This document shows positions 3,689-28,407 of a stretch of 32,000 nt of DNA, piece after piece. The notes beneath the pieces were generated by a model. The model did no database searches and was not told where the DNA came from. It saw nothing but the letters and a program-made list of their open reading frames with translations. The stretch spans positions 29,442-61,441 of the forward strand of contig NZ_BFAQ01000011.1 of NCBI RefSeq assembly GCF_002933855.1, given 5' to 3'. The first letter of the stretch is position 1. Each line of letters opens with the position of its first letter. Origin of the DNA: Vibrio penaeicida. Lineage in GTDB: Bacteria; Pseudomonadota; Gammaproteobacteria; Enterobacterales; Vibrionaceae. The position numbers and the translations under genes are program-made.

Positions 3689-3691
3689 GTC

Positions 3692-4936: not shown

Positions 4937-5714
4937 TAACGATAGCATTAAAAAGACGCTGGGTGTTGTTGTCGGATTGAGCTTGGTTTGTTCAATCGTC
5001 GTATCAACAGCAGCCGTAGGTCTACGTGGTCAACAGAAGGCAAATGCTGTTCTGGATAAGCAAAGCAAGATTGTTGAAGTTGCGGGCTACCAAGCAAGCA
5101 GCCCTGCAGAAGTTCGTGAACTGTTTGGTGAAAAAATCGAACCTCGCTTGGTTGATTTCAACACAGGTGAATACGTTCAGGAAACTGAAGACGGTTTAAC
5201 TGCTTCAAATTACGATCAGCGTAAAGCCTCTAAAGATCTTTCTCAGTCGATTAAACTGACGTCTGAAGACGACAAAGCAAAGATCCTTCGTCGTGCAAAC
5301 TTAGGAACGGTTTACCTAGTTAAAGATGGCAGTGACTTTTCTAAAGTTATTATCCCTGTTCATGGAACTGGTCTATGGTCAATGATGTACGCATTTGTTG
5401 CTGTTGAAACAGACGGTAACACAGTGTCGGGTATTACTTACTACGAGCAAGGTGAAACTCCTGGTCTTGGTGGTGAGGTTGAAAACCCAACTTGGCGTGC
5501 ACAGTGGGTAGGTAAGAAACTATTCGACGAAAACCACCAGCCAGCAATCAAGGTTGTTAAAGGTGGCGCACCAGCCGGTTCTGAGCACGGTGTTGATGGT
5601 CTATCTGGCGCAACACTAACTGGTAACGGTGTTCAGGGTACATTCGACTTCTGGCTGGGTGAGAAGGGCTTTGGTCCATTCCTAGCTAAAGTTCGTGACG
5701 GAGGTCTGAACTAA
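4926..5714 (+). CDS. nqrC: Na+-NQR subunit C (FMN-bound)
   Basis: 262 aa, with the N-terminus [27 protein letters not shown] typical of Vibrio NqrC. It carries the flavinylation motif LSGATLTG. The start overlaps the nqrB end by 11 nt. Confidence 0.95.
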
Positions 5715-6346
5715 TGTCTAGTGCAAAAGATATTAAAAAGAGTGTCTTAGCGCCAGTATTGGATAACAACCCAATCGCGCTTCAGGTACTTGGTGTGTGT
5801 TCTGCACTAGCAGTAACCACCAAACTAGAAACAGCGTTTGTAATGACTCTTGCGGTTATTTTCGTAACAGCACTGTCAAACTTCTTTGTTTCTTTGATCC
5901 GTAACCACATTCCAAACAGTGTTCGTATTATCGTACAGATGGCGATCATTGCTTCTTTGGTAATCGTGGTAGACCAAATCCTAAAAGCTTACTTATACGA
6001 TATCTCTAAGCAGCTATCTGTATTCGTTGGTCTGATCATTACAAACTGTATCGTAATGGGTCGTGCAGAAGCATTTGCTATGAAATCTGCACCTCTACCG
6101 TCTTTAATTGATGGTATTGGTAACGGTCTTGGTTACGGTTTTGTACTGATTACAGTTGGCTTCTTCCGCGAACTATTCGGTAGCGGCAAACTATTTGGTA
6201 TGGAAGTACTTCCGCTGGTAAGTAATGGCGGTTGGTATCAACCAAACGGTCTAATGCTTCTGGCACCATCTGCATTCTTCTTGATCGGTTTCCTAATCTG
6301 GGCGATCCGTGTGTTCAAGCCAGAACAAGTAGAAGCGAAGGAGTAA
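5714..6346 (+). CDS. nqrD: Na+-NQR subunit D
   Basis: 210 aa and polytopic (NqrD/RnfE family), containing [23 protein letters not shown]. It overlaps the nqrC stop by 1 nt (TAATG). Confidence 0.95.
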
Positions 6347-6353
6347 GGTCGTC

Positions 6354-6950
6354 ATGGAACATTATATTAGTCTGCTAGTTAAATCGATTTTCATCGAAAA
6401 CATGGCACTGTCTTTCTTCTTGGGTATGTGTACATTCCTTGCGGTATCCAAGAAAGTTAAGACTTCTTTTGGCTTAGGTGTCGCTGTTGTCGTAGTACTT
6501 ACTATTGCAGTACCGGTAAACAACTTAGTTTACAACCTTGTGCTTAAAGAGAACGCTCTGGTTGAAGGTGTTGACCTGAGCTTCCTGAACTTCATTACCT
6601 TCATTGGTGTAATTGCAGCATTGGTACAGATTCTAGAGATGGTTTTAGACCGTTTCTTCCCGCCTCTGTACAACGCACTGGGTATTTTCCTTCCGCTGAT
6701 CACAGTTAACTGTGCAATCTTCGGTGGTGTATCTTTCATGGTGCAGCGTGATTACAACTTTGCTGAGTCCGTAGTTTACGGTTTCGGTTCTGGTGTAGGT
6801 TGGATGCTTGCTATCGTTGCGTTAGCAGGTATTCGTGAGAAGATGAAGTACTCAGACGTTCCTCCAGGTTTACGTGGTCTTGGTATCACATTTATCTCTG
6901 TAGGTCTGATGGCACTGGGCTTCATGTCATTCTCTGGTGTTCAACTGTAA
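6354..6950 (+). CDS. nqrE: Na+-NQR subunit E
   Basis: 198 aa and polytopic (NqrE/RnfA family), beginning [34 protein letters not shown]. Confidence 0.95.
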
Positions 6951-6967
6951 GGCATAAGGAATAGTCA

Positions 6968-8191
6968 ATGGACATTATTCTTGGTGTAGTGATGTTTACA
7001 CTGATTGTTCTAGCCCTAGTTTTGGTTATTTTATTTGCCAAATCTAAGCTAGTACCAACAGGTGACATTACCATTTCCGTAAACGGCGATCCTGAAAAAG
7101 CGATCGTTTCTCAACCAGGTAGCAAGCTGCTAAGTTCTCTTGCTGGCGCTGGTGTATTCGTTTCATCTGCTTGTGGTGGCGGTGGCTCTTGTGGTCAGTG
7201 TCGTGTGAAAGTGAAATCTGGTGGTGGCGACATTCTACCAACAGAACTGGATCACATTACTAAAGGTGAAGCCCGTGAAGGTGAGCGTCTGGCTTGTCAG
7301 GTGGCAGTGAAAACTGACATGGACATCGAGCTTCCAGAAGAAATCTTCGGCGTTAAAAAGTGGGAATGTACGGTTATCTCTAACGATAACAAAGCGACAT
7401 TCATCAAAGAACTTAAGATTCAGATTCCTGATGGCGAGTCAGTACCTTTCCGTGCGGGTGGTTACATTCAAATCGAAGCGCCAGTTCACCACGTGAAATA
7501 CGCTGATTACGATATTCCTGACGAATACCGTGAAGACTGGGACAAGTTCAACCTGTTCCGCTATGAGTCTAAAGTTAACGAAGAAACCATTCGTGCTTAC
7601 TCAATGGCTAACTACCCTGAAGAAGAAGGTATTATTATGCTGAACGTGCGTATCGCTACGCCGCCGCCTAATAATCCTGATGTACCACCTGGTATCATGT
7701 CTTCGTACATCTGGTCTCTTAAAGAAGGTGACAAGTGTACGATCTCTGGTCCATTTGGTGAATTCTTCGCGAAAGATACAGATGCTGAAATGGTATTCGT
7801 TGGTGGTGGTGCCGGTATGGCGCCAATGCGTTCGCATATCTTCGATCAGCTTAAGCGTCTGAACTCTAGCCGTAAGATGTCATTCTGGTACGGTGCACGT
7901 TCTAAGCGTGAGATGTTCTACGTAGAAGACTTTGACGGTCTGCAATCTGAAAACGATAACTTCGTTTGGCACTGTGCTCTATCAGATCCAATGCCAGAAG
8001 ATAACTGGGAAGGTTACACAGGCTTCATCCACAACGTATTGTACGAAAACTACCTGAAGGACCATGATGCTCCTGAAGATTGTGAGTACTACATGTGTGG
8101 TCCACCGATGATGAATGCGGCTGTTATCGGCATGCTGAAAGATCTTGGTGTAGAAGACGAAAACATCCTATTGGATGACTTCGGTGGCTAA
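6968..8191 (+). CDS. nqrF: Na+-NQR subunit F (2Fe-2S ferredoxin / FAD / NADH domain)
   Basis: 407 aa with an N-terminal TM. It has the 2Fe-2S motif [12 protein letters not shown]...C, the FAD motif RAYSMAN and the NADH-binding motif [11 protein letters not shown]. Confidence 0.95.
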
Positions 8192-8346
8192 ACCCATCTA
8201 AGTAATTGATTTGTGGCTGACTCGTATGAGTCAGCCATTTATTTTTGTAAATCAAGTTGCTATAGAACAGTATCCAGAACAACAAACGCTAAAGTATTGG
8301 GTATTTTTCTCTATCAACTTAAATAATTATAAGCAGGAGTGAGCAA

Positions 8347-9351
8347 GTGAAATACTGGCTTGTTGTCTTAACTTCCTTATTGTTTCTAGCTGGTTGCAGT
8401 CAGCCGAAAGAACAAATCCACTTATCCGGTCCTACTATGGGAACGACTTACAATATTAAATATATTGAGGTCGATGGTGCGCCAGCATCTGCCGATATTC
8501 AGAAAGAAGTCGATAAGTTACTGGAATTAGTGAATGACCAGATGTCGACGTATCGCAAGGATTCAGAGCTTAGTCGTTTTAACCAATACAAAGGTAACGA
8601 AGCATTTAAGGTGTCCGCTGAAACCGCAATCGTAGTGAAAGAAGCGATTCGCCTGAATGAGCTTACTCGTGGTGCATTGGATGTGACTGTTGGTCCTCTC
8701 GTTAATTTATGGGGCTTTGGACCAGAAGCTCGACCGGAAGTGGTGCCAAGTGATGAAGAACTAAGTGCTCGAAAAGCCATGACGGGAATATCATATTTAA
8801 GCGCGACTTCTACTACTCTGACAAAGACGCTGCCAGAGCTGTATGTTGACCTTTCTACCATTGCAAAAGGTTGGGGGGTAGATGTCGTTGCCAATTATGT
8901 TGAGTCGCTAGGCATTCACAATTACATGGTTGAAATTGGTGGTGAGATTCGCGTAAAAGGTGTTAATCAAAGCGAAGAAGCGTGGAGAATCGCCATTGAG
9001 AAACCTTCAACCACAGAGCGTGCGATTCAAGAAATTATTGAACCTGGTGACATGGCGATTGCTACTTCAGGGGATTACCGAAATTATTTTGAAAAGGATG
9101 GTATTCGATACTCGCATATTATCAATCCACAATCAGGAAAGCCGATCGATCATAAAGTGGTATCGGTTACGGTTCTTCACCCTTCTAGTATGACGGCCGA
9201 TGGCTTATCTACTGGTATTATGGTGTTAGGTGAAGACGCTGGTCTGGAAATCGCGAACGAAAATGACCTTGCCGTTATGATCATTGTAAAAACAGAGCAA
9301 GGGTTCGAAGAAATCTATTCAGACGCATTTAAGAAGTATTTAAATAAATAA
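8347..9351 (+). CDS. apbE: FAD:protein FMN transferase (flavinylates NqrB/NqrC), lipoprotein
   Basis: 334 aa. GTG start with AGGAG 7 nt upstream and lipobox LFLAGC. The ApbE family pattern is present (GPTMGTTY..., DVTVGPLVNLWGFGP, SGDY) and the gene sits directly after nqrF. Confidence 0.9.
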   Translation: MKYWLVVLTSLLFLAGCSQPKEQIHLSGPTMGTTYNIKYIEVDGAPASADIQKEVDKLLELVNDQMSTYRKDSELSRFNQYKGNEAFKVSAETAIVVKEAIRLNELTRGALDVTVGPLVNLWGFGPEARPEVVPSDEELSARKAMTGISYLSATSTTLTKTLPELYVDLSTIAKGWGVDVVANYVESLGIHNYMVEIGGEIRVKGVNQSEEAWRIAIEKPSTTERAIQEIIEPGDMAIATSGDYRNYFEKDGIRYSHIINPQSGKPIDHKVVSVTVLHPSSMTADGLSTGIMVLGEDAGLEIANENDLAVMIIVKTEQGFEEIYSDAFKKYLNK

Positions 9352-10108: not shown

Positions 10109-13100
10109 TTACTTCTTTATAGGGGTTCCGCGCGAAATCATTTCACACAGGTAGCTTCCATCGCTATCAAGCGGTTTTTCAACTAGCCAGCGAATCGGTG
10201 AAATAACTGGGCTGGTAGTGAATCGCACGGACGTTTCTAAGATCGCAGAAAACGGCACACTTAAGTCAAAGTCTTCAAAATTACCGGAAACTTCAATCGG
10301 TGTTTGAAGGCTAAATATCTGGGCTGATTTGGGTCTTGGCGCGAGATAAAGATCGAACGTTCTATCCGAGTAAGAAGCTGAAAAGTTACCATTTACTTGA
10401 ATACGCGTTGTGTCCAGTAACAAGTCCCGCTGCTGCAAATCACCATTTGTGATATCAAAGCCGCCTGCCACGCAATTTAGAACCGATTCCTGTTCCTTGG
10501 TAAAGCTAGGCAATATTGCATCGGTTAAATTGACGGCCCAAAGGTCGATTAAGTCCGCTTCAAACTCCTGTGGCCAAATAGAAAAACCAATAAACCCGTT
10601 AGCGTTATTCATGAGATTATCAGGAGTGTTGGCCAAACTGGTTAAATTAAAGTAAGTACTGAGATTTCCACCCATATCTGTCTTAGTATCGATACGTCTA
10701 GCGATAATACCGTAGTCAAAATGATGTACTTGCCCTTGAATAGCGATATCGAATTGGTCTTGTCGAGCTTCAATTTGCCCAGCCAAAGAAAAGGAGCCGC
10801 CAGGAATACTGATTTTTAATGGAGAGACACGTAATTTTCCATCCAATAGTGATAGCTTCGCGGATGTTGCGCCTAACCAATCATCACCTGAACGAACATT
10901 ACTTACCTCTATATCCATTTCTACGTTTGCCCATGATAAGCCTTCAGGGCTAACGACAAGTGGTTGTGTTGTGCTTTCTTCTACAGTTGGCTTGCGACTA
11001 GAGGTTTCTCGGTTAGCAGAATTCGGTATCCAAGCTTTCCAGTTGCCCACTTTAAAGTCGTCCATTTGAATCTGCGATGATGACAGGCTTAATACAATGT
11101 CAGGACGCGAATATTTCCCGAGTGGGCGGAATTGCCCAGTACCAATAAGCTCACTCTTACCGATATTGAGGACAAGTTGCTGTAATTGATATTGAACGTC
11201 ATCTAGCGATAACTTGGCCGATAAATCAATTGGACCATAAGGCGGAAGCTTGACCCCTGTGAACTCGTTAAGCCTATTTAAATTAGGAATAGCCGCGTTT
11301 AATTGGAGTTCCAATTGAGTGAAGTCCAGTGGTAGGGCAATGTCCGTTGAGGCTTCAATTTTTATATCACCAAGGGTAAAAAAGACATTAGCAGGTAAGC
11401 TTTCTGAAAGCCTATTGGCTTCTTTCAGAGAAACCGATTGGATGCTCAGTGTTGTTTTTTTATCCTGTACGGAGCCCGTCAGTAGCAGCTCGGTGTTGAG
11501 CTCCGGTCCGGTATGAAAATGCCCTTCCGAGATGTGAATGTCCATCGATTTTCCGGTATAGATATCCGGAACCTTGAGATACCCACCTTCAAGTAAAGCT
11601 TGTACTTGAGTCATCTCCATGAATTCAAGTAACGTTTTTCCTGAAAGTGATAAGCTTACTCGGGCACTATCTAATGCCATTTCCATGTCATCGGCGATGC
11701 CAAAGCTTTTAGCGATAGCAGCAATATTCGGTGAGTCAGCTTTAAGGTTAAGCGTTGAGGATATTTGAGCAGCGTTGATGCTAACAGCAAGATCGCCTGT
11801 CATTAGGTTGTCGGCGAGGCGCATTGAAAACGGCGCAGGTTTCATTATGCCGTTTCGAAGCTTACCCGAGAAGGTGATGTGTTTGAGGCTTTGATTTGAC
11901 CATCGCATATCACCGACATTTAGGTTGATATCCGCATCCACAATAGTAATGTCGTTACTCAAGATAGGAACGGAAAGGTTGACCCCTTGAGTTGGTATGG
12001 CTTGTTCTACTTCTGGTAACGTTTCTTCTTGTGCTAACAAGGCGAGTTGATTGAAATCCAATATAGAAAAATCAGCATCGATATCCACAAATGAGCGTTT
12101 AGGATCGTTTAACCATTTGAGTGCTAATGTCCCTTTGCTGTCCATAACACGAAGGTTTTGAGTGGAAAGTGTCAGCCACTCATTTTGATGTTCTAAGGTC
12201 GCATTGAGCTTTAGAGGTCCGCTAGCCCCTGACTGCGTACCTAACCAAGGTGAAAGTTTTGCGATATTCGGGCTCGATATGTCCAGCTTAAATTGGCTGC
12301 CAACTTGCCAGCGTGTTTCAGGGAGAGAGCCAAACGCGTGAATATTCAGTATTGGGCTGTCTAGTGTGATGGTCGTTTCCCAATCTCGCTTGTTGATGAT
12401 GTCTGACAGTGCCCCCGCTTTAGCTGTGATGGTAGCAGGCACACCTTGGAGGTTACCGCGAATATCGACATCGACTGGCTGGTTCATTCCTGCTTTAAAT
12501 CGCGCTTTCTCAATGGCATAGTTTGCACCTTCTGTCCAAGATATAGCGGCATTATCCAATGCAAAAGCGAGGCGACTGTTGTCTATCCATTCCTTAAGTT
12601 TGGTGCCTTCAGTTTGGACACTCAGTAACGCACTTTCAAGGTGACCATCTGCTTCTTCGATACCCGCCAGCCAATGAGCGAGTTCACCGAGTGGAGAGTC
12701 TTGGGCACCAAGCTCTATATTTAAAGTTGAAGACCATTCGGTTGCGTCAATTGATGCCTTCCCTCGGAAAGGAACTTGAGCGATATCGGCAGAAATGGGC
12801 GCGTTCAATGTTCCTTTCTCGCTTACGACGGCAAGAGATAGGTTTTTTATTTCTGTTCCAAGCCCTAATATTTCTCCTATAGAGACAGAAAGGTTGGTTT
12901 GGGTAGAGACCAGCCATTGATCAAGAGCTTGCTGCAGCGGGGACTTTTGCGGTGGTGCAGACGCATACCCCATCATTTGCTGTTCTGGCTCTGGTTGTAG
13001 CCAAGGCTTAAGATCGATCACAGGAATCGTGAGTTTGCCATCAATGGTGTTGACGTCACCAAGTGCAATGTCCAGATACCCTTCTGCTTGTGTGATAGGG

Positions 13101-14101
13101 CTATCCACGTTAAGCGACTTAATGTGCAGTGCGCCCTGTTTTGCCGATATGTCAGCGGAGATACTAAGTGGAGCTATATGATAGACATCGAGCCCCAGTA
13201 AGGCTTCAATAGGCTGTGTGTCGAGCCAGTCTAATTGGATGTTTGCCGTTGAAAGCGCTTTCCCGTTTGGTTGAATATTGGAATTGAATTCCAGAGAAGC
13301 GCCTGCGAAATGACCTTTGACGTCAAGAGAGCCTGTTTGGGCATTGAGGAGCTTTTCTATTTCTCCCGTGACACTCAGGTTGTATTCTTGACCTAATGCT
13401 GCCCCTTTGGTGTTGAGATGCCAAATTTTATCATCTTTGGTTAAATCAAATTCATCCAGAAACCAATCCACATAAGTTTGGGTATTCTGATCTTCGTAAA
13501 TCACACTTAAGCTTTTGGCTACGGCTTTCTCACCGAGTTTGACCGTCCAATGCGCTAGCTTGCTGTCTGAATTTAAGGGGCTATCTGAATTTAAACTGCT
13601 CTCTGAATTGTCGCTGCTTTCTGGTGCCACTCTGGTTACTTGGGGAGCAACAGATTCCGCCTGCTTTCCAATTGCCCAGTTTTCATTGCCATCCATATCT
13701 TTTGCTAGATAGAGATGGATCCCTTCCAAATCAATGTAATCAATGAATAGTGTGTTTTCGAATAAGGGGAATATCGCCACTTTTGCCGAAGCGTGCCCCA
13801 CACGCAGCAGCGGTTGCCACTCTATTGAAGGAATATTCGCGACTTCAATATTATTAATTTCCAACTCAGGCCTAAACGATACATGAAATCGGATATCGCC
13901 ATCAATTTTGACAGGTCGATTGATCTGGTTTTCGAGAATGCTGGATATTTTTGGCTTATGCGCCGTTAGGTTTATGTTGAACCCTACGGTAAGCGCGATA
14001 GCCAGTATTGCAATGAATGAAAGAAGGGTTATACCCAAATATTTCAAGGTTTGAAGCAGAACAAATGGCATTTTAGTTTTGGTGGCTGTTGGCGTATTCA
14101 T
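10109..14101 (-). CDS. AsmA-family giant envelope protein (AsmA/TamB/YhdP-like)
   Basis: 1330 aa. It has an N-terminal TM (YLGITLLSFIAILAIALTVGF), then the typical AsmA N-domain pattern (HKPKISSILENQINRPVKIDGDIRF...LEINNIEVAN...IDYIDLEGIHLYL..DGNENW). A long beta-rich body follows, and the C-terminus is AsmA_2-like (LSLLDGKLRVSPLKISIPGGSFSLAGQIE). The true start could be M11. Confidence 0.8.
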   Translation of the reverse strand: MNTPTATKTKMPFVLLQTLKYLGITLLSFIAILAIALTVGFNINLTAHKPKISSILENQINRPVKIDGDIRFHVSFRPELEINNIEVANIPSIEWQPLLRVGHASAKVAIFPLFENTLFIDYIDLEGIHLYLAKDMDGNENWAIGKQAESVAPQVTRVAPESSDNSESSLNSDSPLNSDSKLAHWTVKLGEKAVAKSLSVIYEDQNTQTYVDWFLDEFDLTKDDKIWHLNTKGAALGQEYNLSVTGEIEKLLNAQTGSLDVKGHFAGASLEFNSNIQPNGKALSTANIQLDWLDTQPIEALLGLDVYHIAPLSISADISAKQGALHIKSLNVDSPITQAEGYLDIALGDVNTIDGKLTIPVIDLKPWLQPEPEQQMMGYASAPPQKSPLQQALDQWLVSTQTNLSVSIGEILGLGTEIKNLSLAVVSEKGTLNAPISADIAQVPFRGKASIDATEWSSTLNIELGAQDSPLGELAHWLAGIEEADGHLESALLSVQTEGTKLKEWIDNSRLAFALDNAAISWTEGANYAIEKARFKAGMNQPVDVDIRGNLQGVPATITAKAGALSDIINKRDWETTITLDSPILNIHAFGSLPETRWQVGSQFKLDISSPNIAKLSPWLGTQSGASGPLKLNATLEHQNEWLTLSTQNLRVMDSKGTLALKWLNDPKRSFVDIDADFSILDFNQLALLAQEETLPEVEQAIPTQGVNLSVPILSNDITIVDADINLNVGDMRWSNQSLKHITFSGKLRNGIMKPAPFSMRLADNLMTGDLAVSINAAQISSTLNLKADSPNIAAIAKSFGIADDMEMALDSARVSLSLSGKTLLEFMEMTQVQALLEGGYLKVPDIYTGKSMDIHISEGHFHTGPELNTELLLTGSVQDKKTTLSIQSVSLKEANRLSESLPANVFFTLGDIKIEASTDIALPLDFTQLELQLNAAIPNLNRLNEFTGVKLPPYGPIDLSAKLSLDDVQYQLQQLVLNIGKSELIGTGQFRPLGKYSRPDIVLSLSSSQIQMDDFKVGNWKAWIPNSANRETSSRKPTVEESTTQPLVVSPEGLSWANVEMDIEVSNVRSGDDWLGATSAKLSLLDGKLRVSPLKISIPGGSFSLAGQIEARQDQFDIAIQGQVHHFDYGIIARRIDTKTDMGGNLSTYFNLTSLANTPDNLMNNANGFIGFSIWPQEFEADLIDLWAVNLTDAILPSFTKEQESVLNCVAGGFDITNGDLQQRDLLLDTTRIQVNGNFSASYSDRTFDLYLAPRPKSAQIFSLQTPIEVSGNFEDFDLSVPFSAILETSVRFTTSPVISPIRWLVEKPLDSDGSYLCEMISRGTPIKK

Positions 14102-14205: not shown

Positions 14206-14850
14206 CTAGTGCCGAGTACTTCGTTTTATGTAGATGCTTACGCGACGATTGGCTTTTCTTTGAGCTGCGAGTTCCACTGTATCTGATATTGTTGGGTAGG
14301 TATCTGCGTACGCGACAGCACTCAGTTTTGTCTTGTCGATAGACAAGGAAATCAGCTGTTTTGTTACGCCTATTGCTCTTGCACCGGAAAGCTCCCAGTT
14401 GCTATCGAAATGGTCGTTATGAATAGGTAAGTCATCTGTATGACCTTCGACGACAATTTCCTTTCCCTCCAAACTTGTACGTTCTATAGACGACGCAAAA
14501 ATTGTCAACAGCCGAACGCCTTCATTGCTTAACTTTGCGGAACCTTCTTCGTAAAGTGCTTCTGTGTCGAAATCCACTTTAATTCCATCAGGCATTTTCG
14601 TTAAGGAGATAGGCTCATGCTCAGTCGATTGCTTTAGGGCTTGAATGAGCAGGGTCATTGGCATCTCGGCTTTTCGATCCGATAGCGCGTTCCAACTGGC
14701 TTTCAGCTCTTCAAACTTTCCTTGGTCGATTTGAGAAGTGGCGAGAATAACGATGAAGAAAGTCATCAAAAGTGTAATGAAATCACTGTACGTTACTAGC
14801 CAGTCATTTTCTTCTCGGACATCGGCACCACTCTGTCTTCTGCGCGGCAT
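14206..14850 (-). CDS. MotB/PomB-type stator subunit with OmpA-like peptidoglycan-binding C-terminus
   Basis: 214 aa. The basic N-terminus is followed by WLVTYSDFITLLMTFFIVIL, a single TM with the conserved channel Asp (D23; compare E. coli MotB YADFMTAMM). The C-terminus is OmpA-like (VEGHTDD.P......SNWELSGARA...RRVSIYI). The start is 2 nt after the motA-like stop. Confidence 0.85.
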   Translation of the reverse strand: MPRRRQSGADVREENDWLVTYSDFITLLMTFFIVILATSQIDQGKFEELKASWNALSDRKAEMPMTLLIQALKQSTEHEPISLTKMPDGIKVDFDTEALYEEGSAKLSNEGVRLLTIFASSIERTSLEGKEIVVEGHTDDLPIHNDHFDSNWELSGARAIGVTKQLISLSIDKTKLSAVAYADTYPTISDTVELAAQRKANRRVSIYIKRSTRH

Positions 14851-14852
14851 AA

Positions 14853-15632
14853 TTAGGACTCCAGCCTTTTCTTGGGAGAGAGATAGCTGTTCATCGAGTC
14901 TTTGATGTGCATATCAGGTTGCTTTTCCGTCATCATCACAAAGGCTTGGATCTGCATATCTCGATGGCGAAAATTGTCGTCAGATTTACGCCTAACATTG
15001 ATCGCAGAAGGCTTGAACAAAGCCTGAGCAAGTAGAGTGCCGTATAACGTTGTAAGTAGGGCAATCGCCAGCCCTTTCCCCATGGTAGCCATGTCACCAT
15101 CTAAGCTATCCAGCATAACAATCAACCCAACCAGTGTGCCTATCATGCCAAATGCAGGAGAGAAATTTGCCATAGTACTCAACACATTGGCGGGTTGTGC
15201 TTCTTGCACTCGCTGGCTTTCGTTACTTTCATCAAGCAAATTACGAAGTGCCTTCCCTTTGTAGCCTGTGCCCAGTAACTCTATGGCCATTGCAATGAAA
15301 GGGTCTTTTAACTCTTTATTTGTTAAGGTTTTTTCCAAGCCAGTAATTCCTTCGGTGCGATACACCTTGTTCCATTCTAATGAGCGAATGATAGAAGAGT
15401 GCTTCAGTTTGGTTTCATTCCTACCATCAAATAAGCTTGCAATAACCGCTTGAATGGCTTTAAAGAAAAGAGGGTAAGAGTAGCTAATTAGGGCTGCAGT
15501 TGACGTTCCTCCTGCAACAATCAGAAAGCTGGATAAGCTAACAAATAGCCAATAATTATCGGTGCTTGAAACCACAGCGGTAGTCAAGACAGCGGCAGAA
15601 AACAGCCATCCCGTAATGGTACTCAAAGACAT
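14853..15632 (-). CDS. MotA/PomA-type ion-channel stator subunit (MotA_ExbB family)
   Basis: 259 aa with four predicted TMs in a 2 + long cytoplasmic loop + 2 layout, which is flagellar-stator topology rather than the 3-TM TolQ/ExbB layout. TM3 has FSPAFGMIGTLVGLIVML and TM4 has GLAIALLTTLYGTLLAQALFKP. The start overlaps the upstream stop by 1 nt (TAATG). Confidence 0.85.
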   Translation of the reverse strand: MSLSTITGWLFSAAVLTTAVVSSTDNYWLFVSLSSFLIVAGGTSTAALISYSYPLFFKAIQAVIASLFDGRNETKLKHSSIIRSLEWNKVYRTEGITGLEKTLTNKELKDPFIAMAIELLGTGYKGKALRNLLDESNESQRVQEAQPANVLSTMANFSPAFGMIGTLVGLIVMLDSLDGDMATMGKGLAIALLTTLYGTLLAQALFKPSAINVRRKSDDNFRHRDMQIQAFVMMTEKQPDMHIKDSMNSYLSPKKRLES

Positions 15633-17482
15633 TAGGCTAGTTCCTCCAGCTCACTCATTTTAAACTTATTTTCTTCTAACGCTTGACGCATGACCCTAAC
15701 AATATCTTGCTTGGCAGCGTTTCTATCGTTTTCGTTGACGTCCGTTGCCATCTCTAATTCACTGATTACCATATTGACGTAGCGGTTTGGACAGCCTGAA
15801 ATCAGCGCTTTTACGCGTTCCACTGGCATATCTGAAAAGGCGTTAGCAAGTGTTTGAGCATCAAGATTTCGGATATGATTGCTAATGATTTGTGTCGGTG
15901 TTCGCCAAATGTCATCAAAGCTATAAAAACGTTGTTTTAGCTGCACATAAGCACCCGGAGACGTTTCTTTTAACTGGGTTAATAGGTCGTTTTGTTTGGT
16001 GATACTTAACCCATCGAGGATTTGAGTCAAAACGAAAGGACCATCAGTAGGTAGCGTTCTAAAGTCTGGAACGGTTTGAGCTTTCGTCGCCAACGAAGAA
16101 GCAACATCATTAAAGGTTGCCATAGGAAGAGTGTCTAACCGAGCAATTTCCATCGCCAATTCAGCCTGACGTTCCATTGGGTATAGAGAAAGCAGCGCTG
16201 CAGAATTCTCTGAAGAAAGTTGGCTAATCACCATAGCCTGTATACGCTCAGGCTCGTGCTCCAACAGCCAGCGGATTTGGTTGATGGACAGGGTCTCAAG
16301 AAAATCAAATGGTTGTGACTTTCGGGTTGAGTGTGCGTGAGGGTTTGAGTCGACAAGGAGCTGCTTGAATGCAGAAACGTGCTTTACGACTTGCTCGCGA
16401 TCATTTGGGTTTTGCTCCAAATAGCTTACATAGCTAGGTATCTGAGAAGTCAGGCTAGGGTACATAGTGGTGAACATCGCTCTCCCAAGCTCTTGATATA
16501 CGCAAGCAAACATAGGCAGATTTTGTTCGTTTAGGCTGAGTTTTCTGATGGTCTGATCGACTTGATGAGGCTCGCCTAAGCTGAATTTGACTAATTCTTG
16601 GCGACACGCCTCGTGTTCATAATACTGATGGGAAACTAAGGGCTCGGCTTGCAATGAGGAAGCAGGCTGAACATCGTTTACAGTATCGTTGTTTGGTCCT
16701 GCAGAGCGTGCGCGAAGCAGCATGACGATAAGAGTAATTATCACCAAGCCAAGCGCAATGAGCGTTAGCCAAAAGTAATCTAGCCAAAATACTTTCTCCT
16801 GAATTTGAGTGCTGTCTTTGTTGGGAACCTCAAATACGGTGCGGATGATGTCCAGCGAATCGCCTCTAAGTGGGTTGTAATCCACTTTTTGAATCAGAAG
16901 TTTTTTTAGGAGCTGTACGTTTTCGCTGCTCACCTTTTCGTCCAGCAATAGTGTTACGGACAACTTGTTGATTTCAGTAGAGAGAGGTTTGGCTTCCCTT
17001 TGGTTTTTGCTGATGTTAGCCGTTGGGTTGGGTGCCGGCGTATTTTGCTGGGGGGGAGGCGCTGGCTGAGCCATGGTCTGAACTGGAATCTCAATGTTCT
17101 CTTTGGCGGGCATGCCGCTTAATCCAGGCAGTTTAGGGACGAATTCAGCTACTCTTCGAACAGGTGCTGCAATGGTTGTCGTTCTTTGAGGGGCTCCAGT
17201 TTGATCGGCTTTAGTTTCGGGTGTTTTGGCTGCAGATGCATTAGCTACAGGTACGTTGATTCCCGAATTCTCCTTTTGTACGAACTCCGATTGAATGGTC
17301 AAGACATGCTTGTTGGGTCCTATGATACGTTCAATATCGTCATTTATGCGCGCTTCTAATCTCGCAGAGAATTCAAGCGCTTGGATCTCACTGGATGATT
17401 GCGCAAGGCTAAAGCTAGATATACAAAAAGGCAGAATAAAGGCAAGTTTAACTAATGGGTTCATCATTATTTTTCCAGCCAT
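15632..17482 (-). CDS. Bitopic membrane protein: FliF/YscJ-like periplasmic motif + TM + FliG-like middle and C-terminal domains
   Basis: 616 aa from the track start. The alternative starts M6 and M7 (17467/17464) form a TAATG overlap with the upstream stop and are plausible. Features are an N-terminal signal/anchor, periplasmic EIQALEFSARLEARINDDIERIIGPNKHVLTIQ and LSVTLLLDEK...NPLRGDSLDIIRTVF (FliF-like), and a Pro-rich spacer. A TM follows (FWLTLIALGLVIITLIVMLL). The cytoplasmic part has LLEHEPERIQAMVISQL...LSLYPMERQAELAMEIARLD (FliG-M EHPQ-like) and FYSFDDI...LANAFSDMPVERVKALISGCPNRYVNMVISELE...AAKQDIVRVMRQALEENKF (FliG-C-like). Confidence 0.7.
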   Translation of the reverse strand: MAGKIMMNPLVKLAFILPFCISSFSLAQSSSEIQALEFSARLEARINDDIERIIGPNKHVLTIQSEFVQKENSGINVPVANASAAKTPETKADQTGAPQRTTTIAAPVRRVAEFVPKLPGLSGMPAKENIEIPVQTMAQPAPPPQQNTPAPNPTANISKNQREAKPLSTEINKLSVTLLLDEKVSSENVQLLKKLLIQKVDYNPLRGDSLDIIRTVFEVPNKDSTQIQEKVFWLDYFWLTLIALGLVIITLIVMLLRARSAGPNNDTVNDVQPASSLQAEPLVSHQYYEHEACRQELVKFSLGEPHQVDQTIRKLSLNEQNLPMFACVYQELGRAMFTTMYPSLTSQIPSYVSYLEQNPNDREQVVKHVSAFKQLLVDSNPHAHSTRKSQPFDFLETLSINQIRWLLEHEPERIQAMVISQLSSENSAALLSLYPMERQAELAMEIARLDTLPMATFNDVASSLATKAQTVPDFRTLPTDGPFVLTQILDGLSITKQNDLLTQLKETSPGAYVQLKQRFYSFDDIWRTPTQIISNHIRNLDAQTLANAFSDMPVERVKALISGCPNRYVNMVISELEMATDVNENDRNAAKQDIVRVMRQALEENKFKMSELEELA

Positions 17483-18054
17483 TTCATCATTCGTTTTACT
17501 TCAGGGAGCTCAGGGTTGTGCTTCAACGCTTGTTGCCAAGCAATGATGGCATCTTCTACTTTGCCCAGTTTGTAAAGAACACTCCCCTTTGTCGCAAGAA
17601 TGTTTTCTGGCGTTTCTGTTAGTGGTTGAGCTTGTTCAAGTAGAGTCAGTGCGGCATTAAAATCGCCTTTCACTGCATTTTCTTGAGCTTCTAATTTGAG
17701 TGCGAGTGACCTCGCTTCATTGAATGGAGATACAGGTTCCTCCCCATTTTCTTCTTGAGAAGGTGCGGCATCTTCAGTTTGTGGGGCAGTTTCCTCAGGA
17801 AGAGGAAATGCTGACTCTTCCTGAGACACGGTTGTGTAAGTGGGCTCAGCACTGTCTGTCTCGATGGTTAACACCATATCCGGATCAGACAAATCAAATT
17901 GCACACCTGATTCATACTGGTTGCCCTGCATGTGTATGGTTATTTTTCCATCTTTCATTGCAACTCGTTGTCGAGTTTCTGATTGAGATGCTGATTCAGC
18001 CCAAGCTGGATTTGTCAGCAAAAATAGACAAGCACAAAGGATCGTATTCTTCAT
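17467..18054 (-). CDS. Secreted protein with acidic Pro/Glu linker and C-terminal TPR repeats
   Basis: 195 aa with signal peptide MKNTILCACLFLLTNPAWA/ES. A low-complexity acidic segment (PEETAPQTEDAAPSQEENGEEP) is followed by a TPR-like helical repeat (GDFNAALTLLEQA...GKVEDAIIAWQQALKHNPELPE). The start is 3 nt after the upstream stop. Confidence 0.7.
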   Translation of the reverse strand: MKNTILCACLFLLTNPAWAESASQSETRQRVAMKDGKITIHMQGNQYESGVQFDLSDPDMVLTIETDSAEPTYTTVSQEESAFPLPEETAPQTEDAAPSQEENGEEPVSPFNEARSLALKLEAQENAVKGDFNAALTLLEQAQPLTETPENILATKGSVLYKLGKVEDAIIAWQQALKHNPELPEVKRMMKWLEK

Positions 18055-18057
18055 GGA

Positions 18058-19083
18058 TTAAAACCTCACGCCTAACGTTAGATCGAACGCAGGGTTGCCG
18101 CCCCATGTGCCGTTTTCAAAGGTGTCTTTGCTGATGTACATCAAACCGAGATCGACAAAAATATCCCCTTGAGTAAAGAAGGCATTTCGTGGTGGTGACA
18201 ATTCTAGCCCTGCACGTACGGCGATTTTTTGTTTGTTCTCAACAAACTGAAAGCCCGAACCCGCGTAAACAGATAACCAGTCATCGGTAATCGCATACAG
18301 TGCTCTAGCTTCTGCTCCAAAGCCTTGAATCGAAAAATTTGTACTGCCGTCAAAGTTGCGAAAATAGTTGCCGATAAAGGCAAAGTGAGCGCGTTCTGAT
18401 GGGGTGTGCCCGCTGTAGTAGCGTATAGAAAGGTCCGTTACATTTTGTATGTCTTCGCCATCAGTTGAGGTACCATTGATACCAATGTAACCAAGAGCGA
18501 CTCCGACTCCGCTCTCCTTTACATTCTTCTTTGCGAGCACATCCGGATCCTCCTTTATGTCGAAGTTTCCCGTCCATACCACTTCGTTATTTTGAGTGCT
18601 AACTAGTGACATAGTGATGTTGTGAGTATTGTCGCTAAGAGGCGAACGCCAGGTTAGGAAGGCGTCGACACGTATTTTCTTTCCGAGCTTACGCAGTTCA
18701 TCATTACTTGAAAGCCCATGCTTAAACTTTACGTTGGAGGCAGAGAGGTTGACTTGTGTTTTTCCACATTCGATACAGCTGCGTACTTTGATCCCATTGT
18801 TTTTCATTTTGGCAGTTAGGATCGATGTCAGCTTGAGCAGCTCGGTTTTTTCTTCATCCGTTACGGCTTTACCCTCGAAATACAAGGCGACACTTTGGAT
18901 CTTAGCTAAAGACTTGTTGTCTAAAATGTCGAACCAAAGATCATCGTGTTCTAAGAATTCTTCAACTGTTTGTGCTTCATTATCTTTTGCGGAGAAAAGT
19001 GCATTTAAAGGTTTGGAAAAAACAATCGAAGAGTAAGAAATTAAAAGGGTGCTAATGGTTAGAGTCGTGACTTTTTTCCACAT
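18058..19083 (-). CDS. Secreted two-domain protein, putative outer-membrane beta-barrel with N-terminal periplasmic alpha/beta domain
   Basis: 341 aa with signal peptide MWKKVTTLTISTLLISYSSIVFS/KP. The C-terminal ~170 aa show an alternating aromatic/small-residue strand pattern rich in G/Y/F and end ...FDLTLGVRF, the terminal-Phe OMP signature. The N-terminal half has alternating helix/strand character. The family is not recognised with certainty. Confidence 0.6.
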   Translation of the reverse strand: MWKKVTTLTISTLLISYSSIVFSKPLNALFSAKDNEAQTVEEFLEHDDLWFDILDNKSLAKIQSVALYFEGKAVTDEEKTELLKLTSILTAKMKNNGIKVRSCIECGKTQVNLSASNVKFKHGLSSNDELRKLGKKIRVDAFLTWRSPLSDNTHNITMSLVSTQNNEVVWTGNFDIKEDPDVLAKKNVKESGVGVALGYIGINGTSTDGEDIQNVTDLSIRYYSGHTPSERAHFAFIGNYFRNFDGSTNFSIQGFGAEARALYAITDDWLSVYAGSGFQFVENKQKIAVRAGLELSPPRNAFFTQGDIFVDLGLMYISKDTFENGTWGGNPAFDLTLGVRF

Positions 19084-19347
19084 AATGAAACTCCATTCAG
19101 ATCGAGGCTAGGGAAAAGACCTCGAACTGATAGGCTAGGGGACTCACTCTATTTGAATCGCCTTGCACACATGATCCCGAGGGCTGGGTATGAAGAGTAT
19201 TTTGTTAACCCTTTGGATTTCTTGCAATAAACCATTGATCTGATGATTAAACGCATGGCGTGCTTTGTTTAGATAGGGGTATGTAGCTTGAAGTGATTTT
19301 CCGCCGTTTTGAGTGATCTTTGTATATGTAGAAATGGTAGGTGTAGA

Positions 19348-20571
19348 TTAGCGAGCAACGAGGCGGTTTCGACCTTCTTCTTTTGCTTGATACAACAGAT
19401 CGTCAGCATCCCGAATAATTTCTTCTAGGTTTTGCTCTTCATTGCCAGAGCTAACACCAATACTCACTGTGAGATGAATTTGTAAATCTTCGTATTGAAC
19501 AGCCGTTTTCTCTATTCGTTGGCGCATCTTGTCTAGGCGACTTTGGAATTCTTGATAATCCCCACAGTGTTGAATACAGAACTCTTCACCACCAAATCTC
19601 ACCGCAATTTCATTTTTGAAGTAGATGGATATAATTTGCGCCACAGTAACCAGTGCTCTGTCGCCGCCATCATGACCATAGGTATCATTCACTTTCTTAA
19701 AGAAGTCGATATCAATCATGGCGATATTGCGATTGTCACAACATTTATTGTTGTTCTCACCGAACAAGTAGCGACGATTCCAAAGACCAGTTAACGCATC
19801 TTGGTTAGCGATGCGATAAAGCTCGTCGGTGGCGTCTTTCATATCCAGAATGTGTTGAACTCGACAATAGAATTCTTCTTGGTTGAAAGGCTTATAAAGG
19901 AAATCGTTAGCACCAGCTTTTAGAAATCGCGCCGTCATCGTGCGGTCGTTATTGCCAGACAGGCCCAGAATAGCCAAATGATTTCGATCATACTGATTTC
20001 TAATTTCTCTGGTCATAGTAATGCCGTCTTTATTCGGCATGTCATGATCGGTAATTATCATAGTGATGTCTGGGTTTTCCGCTAAAATATCAATAGCTTG
20101 CTGCCCATCATTTGCTTGCAAGGTATCAATGTACTGATGCTCAAGGAGATACACTACATGGTTTCTAACGGTAATTGAGTCATCGACAACCAATGCTTTG
20201 TGTGTATGGTTCGCCATCAATCGCTTTAGAAGTGGGATCAAATAGGATACAGAAGCGCTACTGTCTTTGGTGATGTAATCGAGTACACCTTTAGCAATAA
20301 CATGTTCACGGACGTTTTCATTAAACTGAGCGGTGAGAACAATCGCACGAACTTTATGCGATAAAACGAGATCGATAATTTCCCCGTCTGGACCGTCGGG
20401 TAAGCAATAATCCAATACAGCGCATAGAAAGTTAGTATCTTGTCTTATTATGTTATTTGCCGCTTCTAACGACTCCGCTAAGACAACTTCAAAACCAATT
20501 TGCTTAAGCTGCGAGTTAAGGTAATTACGAAAGGCTCGACTATCCTCGACAACCAAAATCCGATTTAGCAC
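19348..20571 (-). CDS. Response regulator diguanylate cyclase (REC-REC-GGDEF, PleD-like architecture)
   Basis: 407 aa. GTG start with GGAG 5 nt upstream. REC1 has VVEDS...AVLDYCLPDG...YITKD. REC2 has VVDDS...IITDHDMPNKDG...FLYKPF. The GGDEF domain has ALTGLWNRRY, DIDFFKKVNDTYGHDGGD and the active site RFGGEEF. Confidence 0.9.
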   Translation of the reverse strand: MLNRILVVEDSRAFRNYLNSQLKQIGFEVVLAESLEAANNIIRQDTNFLCAVLDYCLPDGPDGEIIDLVLSHKVRAIVLTAQFNENVREHVIAKGVLDYITKDSSASVSYLIPLLKRLMANHTHKALVVDDSITVRNHVVYLLEHQYIDTLQANDGQQAIDILAENPDITMIITDHDMPNKDGITMTREIRNQYDRNHLAILGLSGNNDRTMTARFLKAGANDFLYKPFNQEEFYCRVQHILDMKDATDELYRIANQDALTGLWNRRYLFGENNNKCCDNRNIAMIDIDFFKKVNDTYGHDGGDRALVTVAQIISIYFKNEIAVRFGGEEFCIQHCGDYQEFQSRLDKMRQRIEKTAVQYEDLQIHLTVSIGVSSGNEEQNLEEIIRDADDLLYQAKEEGRNRLVAR

Positions 20572-20814: not shown

Positions 20815-21882
20815 ATGGCAAATGATGCGATGAAGAAAATAATTCATGTGGATATGGATTGTTTTTATGCCGCAGTGGAAATGCGCGATAACCCCGCCTA
20901 TAGAGGGCGACCTCTTGCCGTTGGAGGAAGTGAAAAGCAACGCGGTGTTCTGAGTACGTGTAATTATGAAGCGCGTCGATTTGGTATTCGATCAGCAATG
21001 CCAACAGGGCAAGCTTTGAAACTCTGTCCCAATTTGCTGGTGGTGCCGGGGCGGATGCAAGTTTACGTTGATACCTCACGAAAAATACGCGAAATTTTTG
21101 AACGGTATACTTCGGTCATTGAACCTCTGTCCCTTGATGAAGCCTATCTGGATGTTACTGAAACTCAAGTTCTTCATGGCAGTGCCACTTTGATAGCGGA
21201 GGCGATCCGTTATGACATTTGGAATGAATTAAAATTGACAGCTTCGGCGGGCGTTGCTCCTATCAAATTCCTAGCGAAAGTCGCATCCGACATTAATAAA
21301 CCGAATGGCTTGTGCGTGATCCCACCAGACAAGGTTCAGGAAACGATTGATTCGCTTACACTTGATAAAATCCCTGGTGTGGGAAAAGTGTCCTTAGAAA
21401 AGCTGAATACTGCGGGTTTTTTTACTTGTCGAGATATTCGCAAATCGGATTATCGTTCACTGCTGACCCAATTTGGTCGCCAAGGTGAGTCGTTATGGAA
21501 GCGCAGCCAAGGTATTGATAATCGAGAAGTTGTTACTGAGCGCGAGCGAAAATCGGTTGGTGTAGAACGCACTTTTTCCCAAAATATTCGCACGTTTGAT
21601 GAATGTTGGAAGGTGATTGCAGACAAGCTCTTCCCTGAGTTAGAACATCGTTTAGTGAAAGCATCACCAGAAAAGGCGATCATTAAACAGGGTATAAAAA
21701 TGAAATTTGCGGATTTTCAGCAAACCACGATAGAGCATATTCATGGTGAATTAGAGCTAGAAGATTTTCGAGGTTTATTAGAAAAGGTACTGCAACGTCA
21801 GAAAGGAAGAGAGATTCGTTTGCTCGGGCTGAACGTGATGCTCAAACCCGAACAAGAAGCGAGACAGCTCAGTTTTTTCTGA
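20815..21882 (+). CDS. dinB: DNA polymerase IV (Y-family translesion polymerase)
   Basis: 355 aa. It begins KIIHVDMDCFYAAVEMRDNP (catalytic DMD), with SLDEAYLDVT and IAPIKFLAKVASD..KPNG. It is full length, with a LexA box upstream. Confidence 0.93.
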   Translation: MANDAMKKIIHVDMDCFYAAVEMRDNPAYRGRPLAVGGSEKQRGVLSTCNYEARRFGIRSAMPTGQALKLCPNLLVVPGRMQVYVDTSRKIREIFERYTSVIEPLSLDEAYLDVTETQVLHGSATLIAEAIRYDIWNELKLTASAGVAPIKFLAKVASDINKPNGLCVIPPDKVQETIDSLTLDKIPGVGKVSLEKLNTAGFFTCRDIRKSDYRSLLTQFGRQGESLWKRSQGIDNREVVTERERKSVGVERTFSQNIRTFDECWKVIADKLFPELEHRLVKASPEKAIIKQGIKMKFADFQQTTIEHIHGELELEDFRGLLEKVLQRQKGREIRLLGLNVMLKPEQEARQLSFF

Positions 21883-27940: not shown

Positions 27941-28407
27941 TTCTTCTCCCGTCTTAAAAAGTATGGGGATATACGACTGCCCCCAGAACTTGCTCAAGCA
28001 GCCTAATATGACGGCTTACGTCATTTCTGAAAGGTTGCTTGGGTATAAAGTGCTTAATTTATAAACGCACAAAGTCTCTATTTATTAGACGGAGAGTTAA
28101 ACAATGTCATTGTTAGGATATTGAATTAATTGCAAAACTAGATTGAATATCACAGAGAAATATTCTGAGGTTCTTGAGTTTCAGTATGTTTTCGAGGCAC
28201 TTCACCTTAATTTGTTCGGAAAATTTCATGTGTATTTTTGATTCGTCGCCTGAAGGAGAATACTTTTCGACGCAATTCTATATTTTTAGACCAATTGTTT
28301 GTAATTTGTGCGTTCGAATGGGTATTACTGCTGCATGCTCTTGTTATTGCCTGTGTAAAACACTATTGTACTAGCCAACTAGTTCGCAAGTGTGTCAGTA
28401 GCGTAGT

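Follow-up and report, generated by a model that had tools for sequence, protein, structure and literature searches.

What does a flagellar-type stator do at a locus where no flagellum is encoded? The question is raised by an operon at positions 14206-19083, on the minus strand, of a 32,000-nucleotide (nt) stretch of the Vibrio penaeicida genome (contig NZ_BFAQ01000011.1), which we call the window. Its five open reading frames (ORFs) encode, in order, proteins of 341, 195, 616, 259 and 214 amino acids (aa). Read directly from the sequence, the junctions from 5′ to 3′ are a 3-nt gap (TAA-tcc-ATG), two 1-nt overlaps (TAATG) and a 2-nt gap (TAA-tt-ATG), which is the tight packing recorded in the initial annotation of this DNA. 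That annotation had seen a MotA/MotB-type stator pair beside a FliG-like membrane protein, a secreted tetratricopeptide repeat (TPR) protein and a possible outer membrane (OM) protein, and had proposed an envelope-spanning machine powered by ion flow. Our analysis supports and sharpens this reading to a FliF-FliG rotor combined with a PomAB-like stator, and we lean towards the view that the operon encodes a self-contained, non-flagellar rotary machine.

The evidence that carries this view lies foremost in the 616-aa protein, in which a FliG-like fold had been proposed and was recovered by domain, sequence, profile and structure searches. Pfam and NCBIfam models return FliG_M (E = 1e-13) and FliG_C (E = 9e-14) together with a weak match to YscJ_FliF_C (E = 1e-4), and phmmer matches the protein to FliG structures in the PDB. 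When its family was compared by hhalign with a small FliG alignment, FliG was covered end to end; in local mode, residues ~320-388 align with residues 5-75 of E. coli FliG_N (probability 92.7%, E = 4e-7). The AlphaFold2 (AF2) model of the protein, with a predicted local distance difference test score (pLDDT) of 63, matches full-length FliG in Foldseek at E = 2e-8 over 320-342 columns. In the search with the whole model, FliG occupies ranks 1-13 and FliF MS-ring chains occupy ranks 14-30, and nothing else falls below E = 0.02.

The initial annotation had treated the membrane anchor as a feature that sets this FliG-like partner apart. The anchor is real but is not a novel addition, as it corresponds by profile and model to the S-ring half of FliF. 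In the AF2 model, a signal peptide or N-terminal helix is followed by a helix (30-54), a strand (59-70), a disordered stretch (70-168), a second strand (168-181), a helix (186-199), a third strand (209-215), a transmembrane (TM) segment and an all-helical cytoplasmic part. The predicted periplasmic topology, alpha-beta-insert-beta-alpha-beta, is that of a split ring-building motif (RBM) as in FliF RBM3, and an RGD motif that is also present in FliF (aa 206-208 of the fusion protein) stands before the last strand. Foldseek gave TM-scores normalized to the target (TMt) of 0.5-0.57 for FliF RBM3/collar chains.

A profile built from the N-terminal parts of 30 diverse family members and searched against the PDB gave matches to V. 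alginolyticus FliF 257-492 (E = 8e-9), a FliF-FliG fusion chain (E = 3.7e-9) and Salmonella FliF 234-478 (E = 2.2e-7), and FliF was its sole match below E = 0.001. The S-ring unit of Vibrio FliF spans residues 257-449, with RBM3a at 257-299, the beta-collar at 300-388 and RBM3b at 392-449 (PMC11481574). Therefore, the profile match begins exactly at RBM3a and extends through TM2. Seven of the 30 N-termini also match YscJ_FliF_C. No match was found to YscJ_FliF, the model for the YscJ/FliF N-terminal domain that would mark TM1, RBM1 and RBM2; instead, a cleavable-looking signal peptide runs directly into RBM3a and stands in for all three. In FliF, RBM1 and RBM2 form the inner M-ring, which lies below the S-ring.

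The domain order can be compared with that of FliF-FliG fusions engineered from Salmonella and V. alginolyticus proteins (PDB 8z4d/8z4g for the latter). Using phmmer against the PDB, residues 184-269 align with FliF 434-520 of the V. alginolyticus construct 8z4d, TM2 included, and residues 389-607 align with its FliG, so that the two proteins are collinear. Unlike the engineered chains, the V. penaeicida protein has a signal peptide in place of TM1, RBM1 and RBM2 and belongs to a separate, diverged family. On profile, alignment and model evidence combined, the 611/616-aa protein is a natural fusion of FliF (RBM3, TM2 and tail) with FliG (N, M and C domains) in one chain. The two lengths reflect the choice of start codon. 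Because the overlap with the preceding gene is 1 nt at position 17467, the gene start is placed at the second in-frame ATG cluster, which gives 611 aa; the ATG at 17467 is the probable start by sequence, and a public V. penaeicida protein of 611 aa is 100% identical to the product.

The position occupied by the collar in FliF is filled here by a Pro/Ala/Gln-rich insert that differs in length between species and is predicted to be disordered. It contains a near-invariant LPGLxG motif at residues 118-123, and the family's LPGLP is aligned with the (I/V)PGAL loop at the top of the FliF collar. The model does not show this insert to be a true beta-collar.

Independent support for a FliF-FliG fusion comes from loci where the two halves are separate genes. 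A metagenome scan seeded with the module's MotA produced 80 loci, over which we ran home-built hidden Markov models (HMMs) for six parts. Among relatives of at least 36% identity, the fusion gene lies beside MotA in 17 of 21, all on contigs with room for it, and the other four contigs are short and break off at the stator genes or a little beyond them. Six loci (L044, L045, L068, L082, L087 and L092) carry a split variant: one to three TPR proteins, all larger than the 195-aa TPR protein of the window, together with MotA, MotB, a FliF-like protein of 440-640 aa that has only the YscJ_FliF_C/RBM3 part, and a separate FliG of ~310 aa. At L092 (6751-13956), YscJ_FliF_C (E = 1e-10) is the only model that the FliF-like protein matches, all three FliG domains (N, M and C) are significant, and no other flagellar gene is nearby. 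The HMM for the 341-aa type of OM protein found no match at the split-variant loci. On one metagenomic contig (L024, 3324-5217), the fusion gene is broken into three consecutive ORFs of 199, 92 and 349 aa, probably through two frameshifts or assembly errors.

The stator subunits had been assigned to the flagellar MotA/PomA and MotB types, and by sequence they are PomAB-like, rather than of the TolQ/ExbB or Zorya types. The 259-aa protein matches MotA_ExbB in Pfam (E = 1e-19); its two best NCBIfam models are PomA (128 bits) and MotP (123 bits), compared with 16 bits (E = 0.008) for TolQ, and its best PDB matches, both over the full length, are MotA (E = 5e-28) and PomA (E = 5e-23). In a rough neighbor-joining (NJ) tree with a small reference set, the split between Mot-type proteins and TolQ/ExbB was recovered in 100 of 100 bootstraps, while the module's MotA group, including the split variant, was recovered in 51 of 100 and is sister to the PomA-like stators of genuine flagellar clusters. 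The protein is a four-TM A subunit with a large cytoplasmic domain between TM2 and TM3, and it lacks the E. coli-type/TGI5-type insertion.

A MAFFT alignment of the subunits included MotA, TolQ and ExbB of E. coli and PomA of V. alginolyticus, the last in a sequence consistent with the PDB alignment. R92 and E100 of the 259-aa protein correspond to R90 and E98 of E. coli MotA, and P159 and P208 correspond to P173 and P222. T166, T194 and T195 are aligned with PomA T158, T185 and T186, which we take to be the sodium site, and the stator units are probably sodium-driven. The 214-aa protein has a TM helix whose channel Asp23, in TYSDFITLL, is aligned with E. coli MotB D32, then a plug (MotB_plug, E = 4e-17), a short linker and an OmpA-like peptidoglycan-binding domain (OmpA, E = 8e-13) with SNWELSxxRA and NRRV; its best NCBIfam model is MotD. 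The pair has the A- and B-subunit features of the FIT/TGI4 stator group, as these are given in PMC12505986.

Stator-type units also power defense systems, and PADLOC models match the 214-aa protein to ZorB at E = 2e-19. That the module is a Zorya-like anti-phage or other defense system built on a MotAB-type motor is nevertheless scarcely credible: the ZorB similarity is generic to the MotB family, no ZorA match was found, the A subunit has 259 aa and lacks the long tail, none of the other four proteins matches ZorC, ZorD, ZorE or any other PADLOC model, and the partners are FliF/FliG, TPR and OM proteins. We therefore rejected a Zorya identity. An identity with the Tol or Ton systems was rejected as well, considering the TolQ and PomA scores, the NJ split, the OmpA domain of the B subunit and the absence of a TolA/TonB-like gene from the operon. 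What the module shares with Tol-Pal (TolQRA), Ton (ExbBD-TonB), GldLM, AglRQS-Glt and Zorya is an ion-driven A5B2-type unit whose genes stand next to those for its own output partner and for components that span the envelope. Its partner is a FliG ring protein, unlike the extended periplasmic proteins of the TolA/TonB/GldM type found in Tol-Pal, Ton and GldLM.

The charged residues of the presumed rotor-stator interface can be compared with those of E. coli. For torque generation in that species, MotA R90 is paired with FliG D288/D289 and MotA E98 with FliG R281, according to PMC12505986. R567 and E575 of the fusion occupy the positions of R281 and D289. Across 141 family members aligned to E. 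coli FliG, 122 have R or K at the position of R281, 75 have D or E at that of D289 and 38 have an acidic residue at that of D288. Using 27 non-identical MotA/FliG pairs, each encoded in the same operon, we found that the MotA R90 equivalent is basic in 25 and the E98 equivalent acidic in 26, and that the FliG R281 equivalent is basic in all 27 and at least one of the D288/D289 equivalents acidic in 22. By these alignments, the two main rotor-stator charge pairs are retained in the module. Covariation counts for MotA R90 against FliG D288/D289 were 21/4/1/1 over the 27 pairs, with too few variant pairs to inform. The EHPQR motif, through which FliG binds FliM, has a different fate: its E is kept in 128 of the 141 members and its H, P, Q and R are lost, which fits the absence of fliM and fliN, while the Phe of the MFxF hinge is kept in 121.

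The initial annotation had also stated that nothing else in the 32 kb is flagellar, and our Pfam scans of all window ORFs of at least 120 aa bear this out. Outside the operon they contain no flagellar or chemotaxis gene; there are no type III export, rod, hook or filament genes, and no fliM or fliN. Compared with the flagellar motor core (FliF, FliG and PomAB/MotAB, as in the Na+ motor of the Vibrio polar flagellum), the module has homologues of the RBM3/S-ring, TM2 and FliG N, M and C parts, an A subunit with the torque Arg and Glu, a B subunit with the channel Asp, plug and OmpA-like anchor, and the R281 and D289 equivalents on its FliG_C torque helix. It differs in lacking RBM1/RBM2, export gate, ATPase, FliM/FliN, rod, hook, filament and che genes, in joining FliF and FliG in a single chain that has lost EHPQR and has a low-complexity insert instead of the collar, and in having dedicated TPR and candidate 8-strand OM partners.

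Several steps would allow these parts to work as a motor. The fusion protein would assemble via RBM3 into a large inner-membrane ring, like the ~34-mer S-ring, with a built-in 1:1 FliG ring. The engineered FliF-FliG fusion forms 34/35-mer rings (PMC11481574), and the S-ring identity of the anchor makes a ring-shaped rotor more likely. Peptidoglycan-anchored units of the MotA5B2 type, probably conducting Na+, would dock and push on the FliG_C torque helix, and the ring, lacking a switch, would rotate one way only. The periplasmic and OM part would consist of the secreted TPR protein and the OM barrel protein, either as a scaffold or bushing for the stator or as the receiver of the output. A further proposal, which we regard as credible but tentative, is that the motor is free-standing and ion-driven, has neither export apparatus nor rod nor filament, and passes its work on to some periplasmic or OM process via the TPR and barrel proteins.

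To our knowledge, the partner protein defines each ion-driven 5:2 motor described so far, whether FliG, TolA, TonB, GldM, Glt or the ZorA tail, and FliG-type rotors are known only inside flagella. If the rotary reading is correct, type III secretion is not required for a flagellar rotor-stator pair to exist and be of use, and the torque-generating core is a separable unit that can be used for something other than swimming. The module would then either have branched off from the flagellum or be a present-day analogue of a stage before it, and the 5:2 motor family would gain a new class of output. The origin of flagellar rotation would become testable, in the form of whether a rotor-stator pair can work without a secretion system and rod.

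We next consider how widely the module occurs. Word-indexed searches returned 14 matches for the 616-aa protein, 4 for the 341-aa protein and 6 for an alignment of the latter, and a contig scan with the single 616-aa protein found two close Vibrio loci, so that the family seemed tiny. An index-free profile search of 1.84 billion representatives, clustered at 50% identity, corrected this impression, with 190 clusters at E ≤ 1e-30. The best 150 of the 190 are almost all 530-777 aa long and matched end to end. Members with names come from Vibrio and Aliivibrio species and one gammaproteobacterial metagenome-assembled genome (MAG), and the majority are metagenomic.

Conservation of the neighborhood in Vibrionaceae and beyond, which the initial annotation had left to be surveyed, is clear: the five-part set occurs in A. 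fischeri, in Vibrio and on many metagenomic contigs, and recurs together in more than 25 unrelated contigs. In A. fischeri, the cassette encodes proteins of 343, 180, 573, 260 and 213 aa, with the fusion protein at 41-42% identity. The same five parts are found in a Tara contig and in several distant members with unrelated flanks, and at some loci the order is permuted to MotA, MotB, OM protein, TPR and fusion. At the related loci whose genes were checked, the flanks (mostly 7-10 kb, less at contig ends) contain no export, rod, hook or filament genes. Clustering the flanking ORFs of 34 module loci revealed no universal sixth component, with recurrent neighbors confined to closely related contigs. 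One distant member (665 aa, 20% identity; L008, 2630-7543) is accompanied by TPR, 211-aa and VWA-domain proteins, with no MotAB visible on its 9-kb contig.

The ratio of non-synonymous to synonymous substitution rates (dN/dS), measured against a second V. penaeicida strain, is 0.055 for the OM protein, 0.39 for the TPR protein, 0.20 for the fusion, 0.068 for MotA and 0.15 for MotB, indicating that all five genes are maintained by purifying selection. Together with the co-recurrence on more than 25 contigs, these ratios show that the arrangement is not a chance juxtaposition. They also bear on whether the operon is what a decaying lateral or secondary flagellar system has left behind and no longer has a function, as the presence of flagellar-family genes and the absence of the rest of a flagellum might suggest. 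We consider this very improbable, as the five ORFs are intact, translationally coupled and under constraint, the same five-part set persists across proteins diverged to ~20-40% identity, and two of the five proteins belong to no flagellar family. A pseudogene relic was accordingly rejected on the intact ORFs and dN/dS values. A fragment of a lateral-flagellar locus was rejected on the window scans, and nothing in the window or at the related loci places the block in such a locus.

Whether the module had been described before was a question the initial annotation could not settle, and the answer is divided. The A. fischeri cassette sits on a 1.35-Mb contig (L003), presumably chromosome II of that species to judge by its size. 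In V. fischeri ES114, insertion mutants of motA2 (VF_A0186) and motB2 (VF_A0187) show normal swimming in soft agar, in contrast to the completely non-motile motA1 and motB1 mutants, and motA2B2 is not activated by FlrA and was called unique among the Vibrio genomes then complete (PMC3948606). Considering the species, the replicon size and the count of two motAB pairs in that study, the stator pair of the A. fischeri cassette is very probably motA2/motB2, and the module's stator pair is then very probably orthologous to it; this part of the module thus already has a name. In the searchable literature, motA2/motB2 are treated only as flagellar paralogues, without mention of the adjoining FliF-FliG, TPR and OM genes. 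A full-text literature search found no paper describing the whole module (a non-flagellar FliG/MotAB system), with most subscription-journal papers outside its reach, and the searched passages of a MotAB phylogeny (PMC12505986) mention no such module. We therefore describe the module as known protein families in an arrangement that we have not found described: a flagellar rotor-stator core without a flagellum.

The swimming phenotypes speak to another explanation, in which the module supplies accessory parts to the polar flagellum, namely an alternative stator and a FliF/FliG subunit that enters the basal body under particular conditions. Dual stator systems operate in Shewanella, Pseudomonas and Aeromonas, and the named hosts of the module are all flagellated Vibrionaceae. 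The MotA and MotB proteins are PomAB-like with the PomA sodium-site residues, and RBM3 and FliG of the fusion share homology with the domains of the native flagellum. We judge this explanation distinctly unlikely. The normal swimming of motA2 and motB2 mutants and the lack of FlrA control (PMC3948606) argue against it, and a fusion without RBM1/RBM2 and EHPQR could not bind FliM in the C-ring. The dedicated OM and TPR partners, the changing flanks of the cassette and the split variant without flagellar neighbors all point to autonomy.

The two secreted proteins are the envelope partners in the module. The 195-aa protein, described earlier as secreted with an acidic linker and TPR, is confirmed as such: in the orthologue alignment, its signal peptide is followed by a small N-terminal domain that is conserved, by an acidic/Pro-rich linker that varies, and by a TPR region at the C-terminal end, with Pfam matches to TPR_2 (E = 7e-8), TPR_11 and TPR_1. 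Its gene adjoins the FliF-FliG gene in nearly all module loci. For the 341-aa protein, a two-domain secreted architecture with an OMP-type terminal Phe had been proposed. The protein has an N-terminal signal peptide and ends in GVRF, as expected, while the barrel and the periplasmic domain appear only in an AF2 model of pLDDT 57; no Pfam, NCBIfam or PADLOC family matches it significantly. In that model, a periplasmic alpha/beta domain (~aa 64-175) with CxECxK at 103-108 precedes eight long C-terminal strands (aa 190-340). When the model was searched against the PDB with Foldseek, its C-terminal half resembled OmpA-TM/Ail/NspA/OmpX (E = 3e-6 to 4e-4, TMt 0.5-0.6), while matches to its N-terminal half were the LpoB C-domain, the TolB N-domain and GNA1162 (E ~1e-3). 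Orthologues from A. fischeri and Tara Oceans have 35-39% identity, with CxECxK invariant and a terminal (V/F/I)RF common, and the gene is in the module at 20 or more loci. We regard the protein, with low confidence, as a candidate 8-strand OM barrel with an LpoB/TolB-N-like periplasmic domain.

An analogy can be drawn with the T- and H-ring proteins of Vibrio (MotX, MotY, FlgT, FlgO and FlgP), where a small secreted repeat protein and OM-associated proteins scaffold PomAB around the rotor. The MotX and FlgT/O/P rings serve the Vibrio polar motor; MotX is Sel1/TPR-like, and the N-domain of FlgT is TolB-N-like, as the N-domain of the 341-aa protein appears to be in its low-confidence model. Pfam and NCBIfam detected no sequence similarity between these ring proteins and the module proteins.

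The same partners could belong to a device that does not rotate. In this explanation, FliF-FliG is a static membrane platform that recruits MotAB-type units, and the ion-driven conformational work of these units, or their load-dependent engagement, is passed to the TPR and OM partners, as in Tol-Pal/Ton, or else serves as a signal to, for instance, the neighboring REC-REC-GGDEF protein and cyclic di-GMP. The presence of periplasmic and OM partners without an axial rod is consistent with it. A response regulator also lies beside the module in V. penaeicida and V. nigripulchritudo (GGDEF) and in A. fischeri, where the equivalent position (L003, 6120-8179) encodes an OmpR-type regulator and a histidine kinase. 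In addition, motA2/motB2 transcripts are lowered in one biofilm-inducing model of V. fischeri, that of RscS overexpression (PMC10804989). We consider an energy transducer or sensor rather unlikely, as the regulators vary by species and are missing at most loci, as RBM3, a complete FliG and the charge pairs of the torque helix are what a rotor needs and go beyond the needs of an anchor, and as the MotA is of the flagellar and not the Tol/Exb type.

Several points weigh against the rotary machine that we favor. We infer its ring formation, its rotation and its rotor-stator contact alike, and co-occurrence is what ties the TPR and OM proteins to their roles. The two AF2 models have low confidence (pLDDT 63 and 57), and because the collar-position insert is of low complexity and predicted to be disordered, the ring in the periplasm could depart from the S-ring form. 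Of the five classical FliG charges, the equivalents of three (K264, D288 and R297) are not conserved. Vibrios carry a polar flagellum, none of which is encoded in the window, and cross-talk between it and the module is possible. No module component is known to give a phenotype, and the very probable identity of the L003 pair with motA2/motB2 (VF_A0186/7) was reached from species, replicon size and the number of motAB pairs. The module is accessible to experiment: A. fischeri, a genetic model, carries it, the fusion and the MotAB pair are small enough for cryo-electron microscopy, and at least 150 diverged family clusters are available for co-evolution analysis.

Table 1. Positions of the module's genes and domains and of adjacent features in the window.
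Feature	Position	Strand	Basis or detail
Secreted protein, candidate OM barrel	18058..19083	-	341 aa; ORF
Secreted TPR protein	17467..18054	-	195 aa; ORF, Pfam TPR
FliF-FliG fusion, proposed rotor subunit	15632..17482	-	616 aa from first ATG; 611 aa from ATG 17467
Periplasmic FliF-like S-ring region	16838..17395	-	RBM3a aa 30-70, insert 71-167, RBM3b 168-215
Insert at FliF collar position	16982-17272	-	aa 71-167; Pro/Ala/Gln-rich, low-complexity
Single TM helix, FliF TM2 position	16712..16771	-	~aa 238-257; AF2 helix 225-260
Complete cytoplasmic FliG	15638..16639	-	Post-TM helices and FliG_N-like 282-388, FliG_M 393-472, FliG_C 481-615
MotA/PomA-type stator A subunit	14853..15632	-	259 aa; MotA_ExbB
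MotB/PomB-type stator B subunit	14206..14850	-	214 aa; MotB_plug and OmpA
Upstream intergenic region, presumed operon promoter	19084..19347	-	264 nt
AsmA-family protein, context only	10109..14101	-	1330 aa; AsmA E = 2.5e-37
REC-REC-GGDEF response regulator, context only	19348..20571	-	Best NCBIfam model CbrR; GTG start

Promoter scans of the intergenic region upstream of the operon found no sigma-70-like site on the minus strand and no sigma-54-like site. The ORFs outside the module comprise nqrABCDEF-apbE, the AsmA-family and REC-REC-GGDEF genes, dinB, a RecQ-like helicase, a Big_7/GH18 protein, a 124-aa ORF without a match and others. The AsmA gene, from a family of periplasm-spanning lipid-transport proteins, follows the MotB-like gene in the same orientation after 104 nt. 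This adjacency is retained in V. nigripulchritudo (L002, 9641-13564) and absent at the A. fischeri and metagenomic loci; the gene may be co-transcribed with the module in the V. penaeicida/V. nigripulchritudo lineage. The REC-REC-GGDEF gene is directly upstream of the module also in V. penaeicida 6E01 and V. nigripulchritudo, and not at the other loci checked. We treat both genes as context of the module.

The nqrABCDEF-apbE genes at 2336-9351 and dinB at 20815-21882 enclose the AsmA, module and GGDEF genes, a layout common to V. nigripulchritudo, and by gene order the AsmA-module-GGDEF block looks like an insertion into a conserved backbone. In a gammaproteobacterial MAG (L016, 10614-16819, on a contig shared with L034), a Sel1/SPOR protein precedes MotA, MotB, OM protein, TPR and fusion, and directly after the module come a BBP2_2 barrel and genes for polysaccharide export resembling Wza, Wzc and Wzy, a single case that may be coincidence. 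Elsewhere in the window, positions 25397-27997 on the minus strand encode an 866-aa protein with four Big_7 domains and a chitinase-like GH18 domain, starting at TTG. The guanine-plus-cytosine content of the window is highest around this gene, at 0.50 for 27001-28000, compared with ~0.44 elsewhere.

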